A stretch of 60,038 bases of DNA, from NCBI RefSeq assembly GCF_003991155.1, contig NZ_CP031296.1; one strand, written 5' to 3'. The DNA comes from Escherichia coli (GTDB lineage: Bacteria > Pseudomonadota > Gammaproteobacteria > Enterobacterales > Enterobacteriaceae). Below are positions 39,001-57,000 of the stretch, in pieces; the first letter of the stretch is position 1, and the number at the start of each line of letters is the position of its first letter. Made by a program: the position numbers.

Positions 39001-42000
39001 ACTCAGACCAAGATGACCATCATTAAATACTGCGTTCCAGTCGATTCCCGCCTGTTCCTGGCTTGATTTCTTGATACTCAGGATTTCAACGTTCAGCACA
39101 ACCTGACGACTCATTTCATTATTGCGCTTGTTCACAATCTCCTGAACGCTGTCCAGTACATCCGGGGTATCTGTTACTGTCAGTGAACCAGTGGACAGAT
39201 ACATGCGCCCTGTGCCTGGTGTCAGCATTGAGGAAACTTCGCTTTTCAGGTCGTTGTACAGCGATGATTTCATTTCCACGGTTGTAGTTTGCGTATTTGA
39301 TGCGTCGCCAGTCATACCGCCAGAGCTGGTAGAGCCGGTACTGCCGCTGGAAGACATTGTGCCGCTCACAACTTTTGAGTTGTATGCCACATTGCTGTCC
39401 ATATATGTGATCGGGAATGAGCGCGTTTCCAGATAGAAGAATGTGATACGACCTTTATCGTATTTCCAGGATATTCCCAGCCGTGAGGATACGGTTTGCA
39501 GTAGGGCAGGAAGCCCGGAGATATTCAGTTCCGGGAGTGATGTACCGCCAGAAGAGACTTTTACTGGCTGACTGCCTACTGACGCCAGAGGAACCATTCC
39601 ATTTGCATCCGGTGCTGGAATTGATCCTGTCATTTGTTGTGTTGAGCCAGTGCCTGTACCGTTCAGATAGGTCCAGACATCGGCGCTGATTCGTACCGGG
39701 ATATGACAGGTTTGTGTGATGCGTTGTGCGATCTGGCGTAGCTCAATATCTGAACGAGTATTAATCACAATCGGGCAGGGCGGCGCTGATTGCTTTACCT
39801 GCTTTTCAATAATTGGCGTTGTATTAATCCATTGTTTTGTTGAGTCCTGGATAACCGGGTTATTACGAATTTTTTTCGCGTATTCAGTCGCTTTTTGTGC
39901 GTCTTTTTCGGCTGCAAGTTCATTAGTATTGATTTTTTTGAAGTTTGCACAGCCTGATAATAAAAAAGAGGATATTAATAAACAAAGCAATTTTTTATTC
40001 ATATTTAATTAACTCCGGTACTGGAATGATAACTGTGCATCCTATTTCATCGTGAGAGCGGGTTAACGATATAACTGTGTCGAAAAGGTTTTGTATCTGC
40101 ACGCCGCCATCTGAAGGAGTCGTGACAACAATAAGACGTTTGCCACGTTTCCTGGCTGTTTTAATAAATCGAACAATAAACTGAACAACTTTTGATTCCC
40201 GTAAGTTGTTACCGATGGCTACACTATTAAGAACCAACGTTTTTTCAGGTGCAGATAAAAAGTCAAAATAATCAAAATTTTCATCGCAAAGATAATGGTG
40301 TTTTAGAAGGGGAAGGTGTTCATGGCGTTTATAAATATCACAGAAATCAAAATATTTAACGTCAGTGTCATTGATTAGCAATTCTGCTAAAAGTGTTGAT
40401 TTTCCAGTTCCAGTTTCGCCTATAATCAGAATATGTTTTTCAGAGTTTATCAAAACATCAATGGCTTCTTTCATCATATTCATATTCATATTCATATTCA
40501 TATTTATCATATTCGAGTGTTTTATTCTCATAATAGAATCCTGTCTTTGCTAATCAATAGTATCTTTATTGCGAGGATTATTCAGATACGTCTGTTTTAT
40601 CGTGATTATCAAGGTCTGGATTAGTAATCACATTGCCTCCGGCAACCATGACTTTTTTTCCTCCAGCTTTAGGGAGATAAATTTCTGCAATTTTTGCTAT
40701 TTCATCCATGACTTCTTGTGTAAACAGGTTTGGAATGTCAACATGATTGTTACGGGCGATATCCACGCGGCGTTTAAACTCTGGTTCTTCAAACCAGATT
40801 ATTTTGTTGGCAATAAATGGTCGGCTAAATTCACTGGTTATAATTTCACGGATTGCAATATTTCTGGCTTTATTCTTCTTATCCCGGAGAGACACAATTT
40901 CTTCAGGAAGAAGAACCGGGCGCTCTATTACATCATCATTCCGTGTACGTGAACTTCCTCCCTTACCACCACCACTGGATATTGAGCGTTTGGATATTTT
41001 CATATCACGCACCCCAATCTCTTCTGAAATCTTTTTAGCCAGAGCATTTTTTGATTTCGGCGGATAGTAAAGCACAACAGCACTGTTTTCAGTGAATGTG
41101 GTCCATCCTTCCTGACCGTACATATCGCTTTTTTGCCCTTGTCCTTCATTCTGAAGAATGAACATAAAGCGAAGGTTATAACCTGCTGTAAAACCAACAG
41201 CGCGTTCAATGACCTCCGATTTACCCATTGATGTAAATTCATCCAGGAGAATAAGGCACTGGTATTTCAGGTCCGGGTTATGTTCCGGCAGTTCACGACA
41301 GTTTTCATTAACCAGTAATGAGAAGAAAAGGTTTACAATTTTCTCATGAGTGATTAAGGCATCCGGTGTCAGACCAAGATAAATTGACATGGGTTTTTTA
41401 CGAATATCCCGGATATCAAAATCACTGAAATTCGTCGCTTCAGCAGTAACAGGGTTGCTGAATATATTCAGTGGTGATGAAAAGTTCGTTTTTATACTTC
41501 CCCTTGTGCGATCTGGTGCTGACATGAACTCAAAGAAGAATGATTTTGTTTTATCGCTAATCCAGCTACGATTTTCAACTTCCTGTCCCATCCATGCGGC
41601 GAGATCTTTTCCATTATCGGGAATCGACGTTTTCAGTATGGCGCTGATGGAAACAAGGACGTCCGGTGCATTATGACCTTTGGCTTTCTGGTCCAGGTGA
41701 AAACGCTCCTTGTCCAGCAGGTAAAGCCCTAACCCGACAAAAAGGTTGCGTGCAGAATCAGACCATATAGGATCATCACTTGCCGGGATAAGGATTGCGG
41801 CAATTTTTGCCAGGTCCGTTTCACGAAGTAAATCACTGCGACTGACGCAATCCAGAGGATTCCAGCGGTGAGAGCGTATCTGTCCTTTAATTGCCTGGTC
41901 GATAGTTTCCGCGTATCCGGCGGGCGCAAAGAGAAAGCATTTTTGCCCTAATTCTTTTTGCCTGAATCCGGCTGATAAAAACCAGTTTTCAAGTTTGATA

Positions 42001-54000: not shown

Positions 54001-57000
54001 TCCATTGTCAATTTTTCTGTATTCAATTGGTTAGATAAGTCAGCTTTTTTTTGCGGAGTATCTGCTGACGCGAACTCCTTCTGTAACGTGGTTAATCTCT
54101 TAGCCCTTTCCTGCATTTCATTGTTGAAATTTTCATAGAATTTGATCTTAGCCAGGATTGCATCATATTTTTGTTGCGTCTCTGCAATGTTGCTTGATAA
54201 GTCATATTGCGATCGCAAAGAGCTAAGATCTGATTTTGCACTATTTGTTATTGTTGATAGAGAATCCTTCATATAGCTGGATGCGCTATCAAAGCCATTG
54301 CTGAAATCAGTGAAGCCTTCGAGTCTTTTCTTCTGTTCTTCAGCGTATCTTATGGTCTGTTCATATTGTTGCTTGAGTTGCTCAAGCTGTCTTGCCGCTT
54401 CAGCGGCACGATTTAGCCCTTCTTCAACTGTTTTAGCTATCGCTGTAACGTCTACTACTGGAATACCAGATGCAAAGATTGATGGTGATGTTACGGTAAT
54501 TATTCCAGCAAAGAGAAATGATAATACTTTATCTTTCATGTTAATCACCCCGCTTTAAGTTTACTTCCACGGTTTAATCCCTGAACTAATGCTGATGCAG
54601 AACGACTTCCTGCATTAAAGATTGGATTTGGCATTTTGCTGGCAAATCCATTAGTGAAAGATCGGAGTCCTGATGCTCGCATAAAACCAGATGCAACCTT
54701 ACCTCCAAAGCCATTAGCGGCTGATGTAAGGCCATTTATACCTACCCCACCTGTTAATGTAGAACAGAGTGTGCCAACTTGTTCTATAAGGAATATGGAA
54801 ATAATCGTAATAAGGAAAAAGTAAACTACAATAGATAGTTTTATATCTCCATTAACAGGGACAACTGATTCAACGAAACTAATTAAGAAACTAAATGATA
54901 TGCTATAGAATAAATTTAACAGTATATAGTTGAGACAACTGCCGACCCATGCAGTAAACATATTTCTGGTCGATGAAAATAGAGCGAAACAAATGAATAA
55001 AATGCCAGCGGAAAGAAGAATTCCAACCATGAAAGTTGATAGTGTCAAGAAAACAGTAGTGTAATAGATGAGAAGCATTCCGCCGATATAGCCAATCCCC
55101 CATACTAGATAAACCCCCATTTTCTCAGCAATTTGGAACTTTCCATAAATACTCATACTTGTATCAAGGAAGTTGTTTAAATTCGTAGATAGAGCGTTCC
55201 ACAAATTATCAACACTGGTTGCAGTTCCTGAACCTCCAGTAACAGCAGCAGAAAGGTCGGAGCCAGCGTGCATTACGAAAGGAATAACAAACTGGCTGTA
55301 ATAAGGCGCTGAATAAGTGAATGCACCAACCAGGGCGAATGCACCGATATTCTTAGTCACCTCGCTCATCAGGACGTCACGTTGGGCATACGTGATTTCA
55401 TATATTAGATAAATAACGTATAAGGCTATAGCCGCAAAGAATGTAGGAGATATTGCCTGTGCGACCTTAGCGGCGTTCGTCGCCGCTGTGGATTCAACAA
55501 TGGTTGTTACTTTCTCAAGAAATTCTGAAACAATGTTCATAGCTTAGTCCTTCTGGCAGATGAAGAGTTCACCAGAGGCACTAATATTTGGCTTCAGCTT
55601 AATTACCAGGTCTGTGCCGAAAAAAATTGCTTCTCCAATTTTTTGGAAATTTAATGTGGATTCTTCTTTATTGTAACTATAAACGTTGTGGGTCGCTGTC
55701 GATGTTTTGGTTTTACGTGGTGTAAACGCTTTTTTAATGATGTAATCGAGAGCGTGGCTGTTATGAGATGGTAAAGTGATTAAATCGTCGTTTTTTTTCA
55801 TAATGTAGTTCTGATTTTTGAGGTTGAAGATAATTGTCGGTCAATGCTTTTGATTTTTTTTCGTATCTCAATTGGATTCGCCTCAGATAAGTTAGCAATG
55901 GATAAAGCCAGTTCGATTTGTAAAATTTTCCTTGTTTCGATGAGATTGATTTTTACTTGTGGTATATCACGGAAGACACCACAGCCGGTAATTGCTTTTG
56001 AAACGACACGTTCTGTATTCGCTATGCTTTTTTTTACTGTTCGAGGGGGGACATAACGCGCACGGCGAAGTTTTCTCAGATTAGCTTTTGCTTGAGTCAT
56101 ATTTGTATGCCCTGAATAAATAAATGCTTTCTTCAAAGCCTGAATAAGCATAAACCAGGAATATGGTGGCTAAAGGCAAAGAAAAGGTGAAATGAATAAC
56201 GGCATTCAGAACTGAACCGATTAATGTATAAAAGACAAACGGTGCTGAAAGTATGAAAGCACCCAGCAGGAAAGAAAAAACATTGCACGCCATTTTTAAT
56301 AAAATTATTTTTATTAGGTGATGTTTTTTTCTGTACATTTCATCGTATCCTTCAGGGGGCTGTCACCTTCTCACGTTGTTGCTTCCATCGCGAGAGCTTC
56401 AACAAGTTCATTGATACAAGTCCGTTCTGCCGGAACTTCTCGACCTGTAACCGGGTCGAAAACGATATGCTCATTTTCAACGTAACGCAGGCGATCGTAG
56501 ATTTTTTGAAGAGCTTTTATCTTAATCACGTCCAGCTCTGCATGTTTTTCTGAAAGAGATACTCCTTCATTTGCGTTTCGCATTTAATTTTCCTCATACT
56601 ATTCCTGTGACACTTAACACCATCAATAAAATATGTAATGCAGTAATGTTTTTTAGCGTTTTTTTGTAGGCTTCAATAAAATCCTTATCCAGAAGTCTGA
56701 TAATAAAAATACATAGTGCATTCATCGCTGCTCCTGTAAGCGGAATTAACAACGAAAGATGCATGATTTATTCCTTGTTTTCATTCTTGTCTTCGATGGT
56801 CATGACTTTAAGTGTTATTCCTTGCATGTCTGTAACAATAACTCTTGTTCCCGCAGGGTAGTTTTCATTGTGTAACGTCTCAACTGGCCAGAATGTATCA
56901 CCAATAAGTAATTGCCCCTTGCCGTTAACAATATCGTCACTGAGCGTAAATTCTTTTCCTTTAAAACGTGAATGCCCTGTGTTCACCAGGAGAGTATCTA

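Follow-up and report, generated by a model that had tools for sequence, protein, structure and literature searches.

The IncI2 plasmids are the main carriers of mcr-1 colistin resistance. Two of them, R721 (NC_002525) and TP114 (MF521836), are the closest described counterparts of the region considered here, which occupies positions 39995-55540, together with its flanks, of a 60,038-nucleotide stretch of Escherichia coli DNA (contig NZ_CP031296.1; hereafter the window) and in which genes for a VirB/VirD4 type IV secretion system (T4SS) lie among genes for a thin pilus. A 2006 paper described TraK to TraB of R721 as sequential and followed by a stretch of around 4.5 kb of other genes, and the twelve homologues of Aeromonas, TrbJ and TraA included, as contiguous (PMC1762418). 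A 2025 paper placed virB5 and virB6 of IncI2 plasmids 4 kb upstream of virB1 and in inverse order (PMC11873049), and a study of TP114 gives the same order gene by gene (PMC7508951, Suppl. Data 1). Further afield, the systems of R388 (IncW, Trw) and pKM101 (IncN, Tra) consist of the same 12 components, whereas the pilus resembles the R64/IncI1 thin pilus (pilI-pilV, with a shufflon), a type that stabilises mating pairs (PMC9045228). In the bundle-forming pilus of enteropathogenic E. coli, BfpG binds the secretin BfpB in a 17:17 complex (PDB 9U5S), and BfpG is reported to resemble Xanthomonas VirB7's C-terminal domain (PMC12531336).

The 15,546 bp of the region are 100% identical to E. coli plasmid pIPCEC42_2 (NZ_AP026790.1), which is typed by MOB-suite as IncI2 / MOBP / MPF_T, and they match 518 plasmid records, all but one of them (517/518) at 95% identity or more and 484 of them over at least 80% of the length. 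Both the window and NZ_AP026790.1 contain ISApl1-mcr-1.1-pap2. In the window this colistin-resistance cassette of ISApl1 transposase, mcr-1 and pap2 spans 17595-21241, downstream of the gene for a 1437-residue relaxase, and for mcr-1 itself (541 amino acids; 18792-20417) the MCR-1 model gives 1302.7 bits, its cut-off being 1100. The window is a typical mcr-1 IncI2 plasmid, with a backbone of the R721/TP114 type as judged by near-identical DNA to typed IncI2 plasmids and by the same gene order. From yhaB to pilV, R721 and TP114 agree with the window in gene content, order and orientation, as established for R721 by annotation and tblastn, and the TP114 names correspond one to one (traA is virB6 and trbJ is virB5, followed by kikA, pilL, pilM, ygeA, traB-K and pilN-V). 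Most proteins are 94-100% identical to those of R721, the exceptions being VirB6 (85%), TrbM (73%), the DUF5710 protein (80%) and EexN (36%). This plasmid carries ISApl1-mcr-1, unlike R721 and TP114, in which an additional gene, yggB, separates trbM from the DUF5710 gene. The IncI2-type architecture that the original prediction had named is the right one: it is the ordinary conserved IncI2 backbone, already sequenced, transposon-mapped and discussed in print, and the layout is not new.

We conclude with high confidence that this is the conjugative transfer region of an mcr-1 IncI2 plasmid, with genes for two machines of the cell envelope. The first, a minimal P-type (MPF_T) VirB/VirD4 T4SS, would build the mating channel and move the DNA; the second, a type IVb thin pilus like that of R64 (PilL-PilV, its tip adhesin PilV being switched by a shufflon), would hold mating pairs together in liquid and in the gut. 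This division of labour rests on published TP114 and IncI2 genetics. In the TP114 transposon map, conjugation in vitro requires the VirB/D4 homologues, while pilL, pilN-S, pilU and pilV are essential in the mouse gut only and pilM, pilT and traF (virB7) in no replicate (PMC7508951); in IncI2, deletion of virB2 abolishes transfer and deletion of virB5 cuts it 7- to 115-fold (PMC11873049).

Read in transcriptional direction, the genes run in the order yhaB, yhaA, virB6, virB5, eexN, then the DUF5710 gene, then trbM, pilL, pilM, ygeA, virB1-B4, virB7-B11, virD4, yfdA and pilN-pilV, all on the minus strand save the DUF5710 gene. Between trbM and pilV the genes are spaced by 118 nt at most, many of them overlapping by 1-17 nt, and the head unit is packed just as closely. 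We infer two long transcription units, split by the opposite-strand DUF5710 gene: the first would comprise yhaB-yhaA-virB6-virB5-eexN and end at a terminator-like hairpin, and the second would run trbM-pilL-pilM-ygeA-virB1-B2-B3-B4-B7-B8-B9-B10-B11-virD4-yfdA-pilN and on to pilV.

The central block of virB1-B4, virB7-B11 and virD4 had been proposed from the sequence at first reading, and searches with hidden Markov models (HMMs) bear it out, with VirB2 just below threshold and VirB7 recognised by its open reading frame (ORF), lipobox and family profile. All of its genes lie on the minus strand. They encode the lytic transglycosylase VirB1 (traB; 49466-50050; PF01464 SLT, E=5.1e-11), the conjugative pilin VirB2 (traC; 49176-49466; PF04956 TrbC, 27.2 bits against a cut-off of 27.9), whose topology of a signal peptide and two hydrophobic segments is pilin-like, VirB3 (traD; 48785-49105; PF05101, E=1.6e-8), the ATPase VirB4 (traE; 46422-48779; PF03135, E=1.2e-15), the 44-residue lipoprotein VirB7 (traF; 46256-46390; MKIPLIIASALLISAC), VirB8 (traG; 45522-46256; PF04335, E=5.9e-42), VirB9 (traH; 44755-45525; PF03524, E=3.7e-50), VirB10 (traI; 43626-44765; PF03743, E=6e-45), the ATPase VirB11 (traJ; 42552-43607; PF00437, E=3e-28, and named VirB11 by PGAP) and the coupling protein VirD4 (traK; 40578-42548; PF02534, E=6.1e-86, and PF12696, E=3.1e-20). 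The set has what is expected of a P-type MPF_T system, namely three ATPases (VirB4, VirB11 and VirD4), an outer-membrane core of VirB7, VirB9 and VirB10, the inner-membrane proteins VirB3, VirB6 and VirB8, and the pilus proteins VirB2 and VirB5 with the VirB1 transglycosylase. The canonical contiguous virB1-virB11 order is absent, an order that is typical of the family and not required for membership.

Within the outer-membrane core, VirB7 is assigned by its lipobox (LISAC), its position, with a stop codon that overlaps the virB8 start (TAATG), and its family profile, for which the top matches in the PDB are TrwH of R388 (E=2.5e-5) and TraN of pKM101 (E=0.017). The profile was needed, as phmmer with VirB7 alone returned only noise from the PDB; phmmer with VirB5 likewise found no match there. 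The gene is annotated as traF (virB7) in R721 and TP114, and it is absent from the gene table of the identical RefSeq/PLSDB record. The PDB relatives of VirB9 are TrwF (E=1e-23) and TraO (E=2e-9), and those of VirB10 are TrwE (E=1.5e-47) and TraF of pKM101 (E=1.3e-32), such that VirB10, VirB9, VirB6 and VirB7 all have their best solved relatives in R388 (TrwE, TrwF, TrwI and TrwH, respectively). We take VirB9 as 256 amino acids, from an ORF that begins MMLKRTTAIVLLSMLQVPGALA and provides a signal peptide (...PGALA|AMYG); in the identical RefSeq/PLSDB record the protein has 233 residues and so is without a signal peptide.

The remaining two structural components lie apart. The inner-membrane platform VirB6 (traA; 54545-55540, minus strand) matches PF04610 TrbL (E=1.8e-35) and TrwI of R388 (E=8e-7), and the pilus-tip protein VirB5 (trbJ; 53895-54548, minus strand) matches PF07996 (E=3.8e-10) and, under the cut-off of that model, TIGR02791 VirB5 (E=1e-9). 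These matches uphold the suspected VirB identity of the displaced pair, with no reassignment to families outside VirB, and the pair sits 3,845 bp upstream of virB1, close to the 4 kb first estimated, with virB6 before virB5; the departure from canonical order is one of displacement and inversion. Behind them follows an EexN-family entry-exclusion lipoprotein (53662-53886, minus strand; NF033894, E=6.7e-19, 67.6 bits against a cut-off of 33) and, 16 nt past the eexN stop, the terminator-like hairpin (53630-53646, minus strand), a 7-bp stem with 5 GC pairs followed by TTTTTTT, which by its form would close the yhaB-yhaA-virB6-virB5-eexN unit. Like IncN-type systems, the locus has an EexN-family lipoprotein beside virB5/virB6 and a kikA/trbM gene. 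It differs from R388 and pKM101, where virB6, virB5 and eex occupy the interval between virB4 and virB7, in having these genes at the head of the system, in the interleaving of thin-pilus genes, and in a second VirB7-like sequence, borne on PilL. EexN is only 36% identical to the R721 copy, alongside 94% for the neighbouring VirB5 and 85% for VirB6, and the divergence of EexN and VirB6 from R721 suggests, at the level of sequence, different exclusion groups within IncI2.

The second machine is represented by a type IVb thin-pilus set of secretin, PilO, ATPase, platform, pilin, prepilin peptidase and shufflon adhesin. On the minus strand, these are the lipoprotein secretin PilN (38359-40002; Secretin_N_2, E=4.4e-18, and Secretin, E=2.3e-10; lipobox LLSGC), which matches BfpB (9u5s_A) at E=5.7e-36, PilO (36998-38320; Pfam PAP_PilO), PilP (36520-37035; a PGAP name, with no Pfam match), the ATPase PilQ (34957-36495; T2SSE, E=4e-61), the platform protein PilR (33857-34966; T2SSF), the pilin PilS (33255-33812; Pfam PilS), the transglycosylase PilT (32707-33246; SLT), the prepilin peptidase PilU (32068-32703; Peptidase_A24) and the shufflon adhesin PilV (30679-32055; Shufflon_N, E=2.7e-167). 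The R64/IncI1 pilus offers homologues of PilL (C-terminal half, 30% identity), PilM, PilN and PilO-PilV, including the Shufflon_N adhesin. In I1-complex plasmids, however, an uninterrupted run of pil genes accompanies a T4SS of the Dot/Icm-like (MPF_I) kind; in the present plasmid there is no single pil operon, and around 10.6 kb (ygeA, the VirB/VirD4 block and yfdA) separate pilL-pilM from pilN-pilV. That pil genes flank the block on both sides, with a pilL-like gene upstream, was foreseen, but pilM had been put on the wrong side. The ORF at 39995-40531, at the low end of the region, encodes a small P-loop NTPase and is not pilM; the true pilM (50588-51025, minus strand; PF07419, E=1.3e-13) lies directly after pilL and upstream of virB1. 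As pilM adjoins pilL, the VirB/VirD4 block, with ygeA and yfdA, lies exactly between pilM and pilN.

A detail that is apparently unreported, with no paper linking PilL and VirB7 found in our literature search, is a copy of VirB7 at the start of PilL. The pilL gene (51031-52266, minus strand) encodes a chimeric lipoprotein of 411 amino acids (PF10671, E=7.1e-15). Residues 1-16 form a signal peptide and lipobox and residues 17-44 a VirB7-like peptide (residues 1-44 corresponding to DNA 52135-52266); there follow a low-complexity linker of 154 amino acids (residues 45-198; 71% P/S/T/Q/N/K/A), a PilL-homologous domain (residues 199-290) and a TcpQ domain (residues 325-407). The last of these matches BfpG (9u5s_R) at E=0.003 and, together with the cognate lipoprotein secretin PilN, places the PilL C-terminus by homology among the TcpQ/BfpG secretin partners. 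The likeness to VirB7 first appeared, unexpectedly, when PilL matched the virB7 locus of relatives. Residues 1-44 align without gaps to the whole of VirB7, with 26 of 44 positions identical (59%; E=7e-18), and the match takes in signal peptide, lipobox and the whole of the mature peptide (SHAPEPAQAKGGWYELNTTIEQVRADTY versus SHTPNPVQKKGGWFELNTAIEQIKAGDY); the DNA similarity between pilL and virB7 is limited to codons 1-44. All nine invariant columns of the VirB7 family (M1, C16, S17, P20, P22, G27, W29, N33 and T34) are retained, and with them the lipobox cysteine and the family motif P-x-P ... G-x-W-x-x-[LIM]-N-[TS].

In the comparison of the PilL head with VirB7, synonymous sites are saturated (proportion of synonymous differences, pS, 0.78-0.90), with a non-synonymous proportion (pN) of 0.21. 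The head is 64-66% identical to the VirB7 of a related lineage without pil genes (the sister lineage, described below) and 50% identical to that of the outgroup plasmid pRHB39-C21_4, and in the mature part the values are 79% for the sister lineage and 64% for outgroups, as against 68% and 46-50% for IncI2 TraF. Compared with sister-lineage VirB7, the mature part gives a dN/dS (ratio of non-synonymous to synonymous rates) of about 0.12, equal to that between true VirB7 orthologues, and the mature peptide (pN 0.13-0.21) is better conserved than the signal peptide (pN 0.26-0.37). To judge from these ratios, the VirB7-like head is under purifying selection.

With the 44-residue VirB7, a word-indexed homologue search gave near-identical copies only and was replaced by an exhaustive profile search of 1.84 billion representatives, in which the IncI2 PilL cluster is the sole long protein to match positions 1-44. 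A protein of 320 amino acids (P0036) matches the profile at positions 1-36, its head (CKTTTEPAKPKGEWVWINTNL) being fused to a long unrelated C-terminal region; fusions of VirB7 heads to additional domains may have arisen on more than one occasion. In other PilL proteins the match is restricted to residues ~184-411. The PilL of IncI-gamma, unlike that of IncI2, has its own lipobox head without VirB7 similarity. That head also bears no similarity to TraH, TraI or any other part of the 50 kb covered, and a general rule by which the PilL head mimics the cognate T4SS lipoprotein was rejected; the VirB7-like head is accordingly specific to IncI2.

Docking of the head was modeled with AlphaFold2 as a single-chain fusion of PilL residues 16-60, a (GGGGS)6 linker and mature VirB9, using a 37-row alignment that comprised the query, six further VirB7-VirB9 pairs and 15 each of VirB9 homologues and VirB7-like peptides. 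In the model the head reaches a predicted local distance difference test score (pLDDT) of 69 over residues 1-10 and 77 over residues 11-20 and forms a beta strand (Y30-E31-L32) and a short helix; VirB9 scores 78-96 and matches TrwF, Xanthomonas VirB9 and TraO, with 8rt6_B matched at E=7.5e-20, while the PilL-specific tail and the linker fall below 50. When the 29 head columns were permuted identically in every alignment row, the head dropped to 36, 34 and 31 and lost all secondary structure, and two C-terminal VirB9 strands became shorter. The comparison, judged by pLDDT, supports a putative order-specific docking of the PilL head on VirB9, one that is homology-dependent in that the alignment holds true VirB7-VirB9 pairs.

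Two explanations of this head have to be weighed. The simplest, which we put a little below an even chance, is that PilL recycled a lipoprotein export signal, a virB7 copy having been fused for its signal peptide and lipobox with no connection to the T4SS left. In line with it, pilL is dispensable for in vitro conjugation in TP114, the PilL of IncI-gamma functions with an unrelated lipobox head, and binding between PilL and VirB9 is a matter of prediction. Nor do the finer tests of constraint reach significance: among seven IncI2 PilL variants residues 17-44 contain none of the 18 variable sites (1.2 expected), variation setting in at residue 45, and Tajima-type relative-rate tests of the PilL head against TraF gave counts of 5-7 versus 1-3 (p=0.18-0.5), both results lying in the expected direction. 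The 514 full PilL matches in the plasmid collection, all at least 90% identical (513 at least 95%), included no divergent chimeric PilL for a test of co-variation. An export signal would, however, have no need of the mature peptide, and this is the better conserved part; the saturated pS with a dN/dS like that of true VirB7 orthologues, the retention of every invariant family residue, the greater closeness of the head to all other VirB7s than that of IncI2's own TraF, and the docking of the head by AlphaFold but not of the permuted control all run counter to it.

The other explanation, which we put forward tentatively and rate somewhat below an even chance, is that PilL serves as a second VirB7, of extended form. 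The conserved VirB7-like lipopeptide of 28 residues would attach to VirB9 within the T4SS outer-membrane core, the PilN secretin would be bound by the TcpQ/BfpG-type domain at the C-terminus, and the flexible linker of 154 residues would tether the thin-pilus exit pore beside the DNA-transfer channel, such that contact through the pilus brings the recipient to the right spot. The head could also replace TraF, which would explain why traF is the sole VirB gene scored as dispensable in the TP114 transposon screen (PMC7508951), though the dispensability could simply reflect the 135-bp size of the gene. A described protein follows the same plan, as far as sequence can tell: the VirB7 of Xanthomonas citri (PDB 6GYB, 2N01) consists of a VirB9-binding lipopeptide and a C-terminal N0 domain. 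With 411 residues PilL is not a stand-alone VirB7 of 40-60 amino acids, but extended VirB7s do exist, as in Xanthomonas. PilL differs from the latter in its low-complexity linker, its two C-terminal domains, its coexistence with a short VirB7 and its membership, by homology, of a pilus-secretin partner family. In relation to the bundle-forming pilus, PilN is homologous to BfpB and the TcpQ domain of PilL to BfpG; BfpG is a small non-lipoprotein, whereas PilL is a lipoprotein with a VirB7 head. The head provides a specific and cheaply testable hypothesis for physical coupling between a conjugative T4SS and an accessory type IV pilus. If true, it would offer a clear case of two secretion nanomachines joined by a structural subunit that they share, and it would bear on strategies for blocking IncI2 transfer in the gut.

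The way in which the two machines came to be interleaved can be approached through relatives. A tblastn search with VirB8 found about 60 plasmids at 60-80% identity. In one of them, pRHB39-C21_4, virB6-eexN-virB5 stand right before virB1 and are followed by B2-B4, a 44-residue VirB7, B8-B11, virD4 and trbM, without pil genes; two Rep3 metagenome contigs share this order and also have no pil genes, and the VirB proteins of these outgroups are 49-76% identical to those of the window. More distantly, an Aeromonas contig (VirB9 48% identical) has the canonical order B1-B4, B5, B6, B8-B11. Closest is the sister lineage, consisting of CP101950.1 and six metagenome contigs, which has the IncI2 backbone in common, with the DUF5710 gene, trbM and ygeA (70% identical) among the shared genes. 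It has no pilL-pilM, its trbM, ygeA and virB1 being contiguous, and the place of yfdA-pilN...pilV after virD4 is taken by an inverse autotransporter with IAT_beta, Big_1 and Invasin_D3 domains. CP101950.1 was also considered as a product of recent deletion or of faulty assembly, an idea rejected in view of proteins that are 63-94% identical and of six independent metagenome contigs with the same layout. The autotransporter loci lie at 12406-15630 in CP101950.1 (L007) and at 15021-18198 and 15021-18104 in two of the metagenome contigs (L012 and L013, respectively). This protein may be an alternative mating adhesin; we found no paper on it. The site downstream of virD4 can evidently carry either a thin pilus or an invasin-like adhesin.

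The presence of the head module before virB1 in pil-less relatives, together with divergence of VirB5 and VirB6 in step with the other VirB proteins, indicates that the displaced pair is ancestral and not a foreign graft. VirB6 and VirB5 are 55% and 57% identical to those of pRHB39-C21_4, within the 49-76% range of the other VirB proteins, and 81-83% identical to those of the sister lineage, where VirB proteins range over 63-94%. On this comparison virB6/virB5/eex at the operon head is ancestral to the clade, and the 3.8-kb gap of IncI2 is made up of genes that were inserted later, pilL-pilM among them. What is observed is the identity, order and conservation of the genes; the order of events that follows is inferred from them. 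Relatives such as the Aeromonas plasmid have the canonical order; an enterobacterial subclade would have moved virB6/eex/virB5 to the operon head, right before virB1. The common ancestor of IncI2 and the sister lineage would then have gained the DUF5710 gene, trbM and ygeA between the head module and virB1, and finally IncI2 would have come to hold pilL-pilM between trbM and ygeA and yfdA-pilN...pilV with its shufflon after virD4, with the invasin-like autotransporter in the latter place in the sister lineage. In place of a loosely defined mosaic of sources, the comparison with pil-less relatives thus offers a concrete history in steps.

A single event, in which a ygeA-virB1...virD4-yfdA block was inserted into an intact pilL-pilV operon between pilM and pilN, instead of the addition of pil genes to a T4SS backbone in two pieces, draws on the contiguity of pilL-pilM-pilN in an I-complex plasmid (IncI-gamma/K1), on an IncI2 break that falls exactly at the pilM|pilN junction and on the 8-nt overlap of yfdA with the pilN start. 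We consider it rather unlikely, because the sister lineage, in which trbM-ygeA-virB1 are contiguous, departs from IncI2 in two separate places (trbM|ygeA and downstream of virD4), and because two parts of the same T4SS, trbM and the virB6 module, lie outside the putative insert. Derivation of the virB5/virB6 module from a different T4SS, making the system a mosaic, has been suggested from its separation and inverse order (PMC11873049) and could also draw on its own terminator-like hairpin, on VirB5 and VirB6 being the most variable T4SS proteins among IncI2 plasmids (PMC11873049) and on the low VirB6 and EexN identities to R721 given above, but it is improbable, since the same B6/eex/B5 head module directly precedes virB1 in pil-less relatives and the divergence of VirB5 and VirB6 tracks that of the other VirB proteins against both pRHB39-C21_4 and the sister lineage.

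Against the stepwise history, and the two-machine, two-unit interpretation to which it belongs, there are a few points to be set. VirB7 matched no library HMM in the Pfam and NCBIfam scans, and VirB2 stays just under the Pfam TrbC cut-off. A scan for sigma-70-like promoters found 24 sites, against 48.6 in shuffled sequence, and is silent on where the units start, and the GC and skew profile neither displays clear module boundaries nor dates the insertions. The last step may, moreover, be either a gain of the pil genes by IncI2 or their loss by the sister lineage.

The two short genes at the head of the virB6 unit are yhaB-like (55798-56151, minus strand; 117 amino acids as the longest ORF, 100 in PGAP), whose product is 73% identical in the pil-less sister lineage, and yhaA-like (55544-55801, minus strand; 85 amino acids), which is 100% identical in R721, overlaps yhaB by 4 nt and is separated from virB6 by 3 nt. 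The ygeA gene (50071-50469, minus strand; 132 amino acids) encodes a protein with a basic C-terminal tail (RRPRRKKRSSRI) and is set off from pilM by the 118-nt gap; its matches in the plasmid collection are nearly all IncI2 (514/516 at 95% or more), with the sister-lineage copy in addition. None of the three products has a family match in PADLOC, NCBIfam or Pfam. In TP114, yhaB is essential for conjugation in all replicates, and yhaA and ygeA are needed for it (PMC7508951), and the three may be uncharacterised T4SS accessory or regulatory proteins.

Between eexN and pilL lie the DUF5710 gene (ygiA, and 'primase' in TP114; 52616-53407, plus strand; PF18974, E=1.4e-16) and trbM/kikA (52269-52568, minus strand; PF07424, E=2.3e-8, with the start taken from PGAP). 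The former is dispensable and the latter (kikA) required in the mouse gut only in TP114 (PMC7508951), and trbM is located after virD4 in the outgroup plasmids. The DUF5710 gene is flanked by 34-nt direct repeats (52584-52617 and 53435-53468; family D1, 85% identity), each copy of which holds a GC-rich, terminator-like hairpin. The eexN-trbM interval has the look of a cassette-like hot spot at which genes are gained and lost.

At the other end of the VirB/VirD4 block, yfdA (39995-40531, minus strand) encodes a P-loop NTPase of 178 amino acids. Its matches in Pfam, NCBIfam and PADLOC are centred on the Walker A motif only (nSTAND3 at 30.1 bits, many AAA families, and mad8 over residues 22-52), and the PGAP name of 'sigma-54-interacting regulator' was rejected as just a Walker A match. 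The gene is absent from the TP114 gene table. Homologues occur at 43% identity within IncF tra operons, between traU and trbC, and at 37% in an IncX5 plasmid, and yfdA looks like a recurring accessory gene across unrelated conjugation systems.

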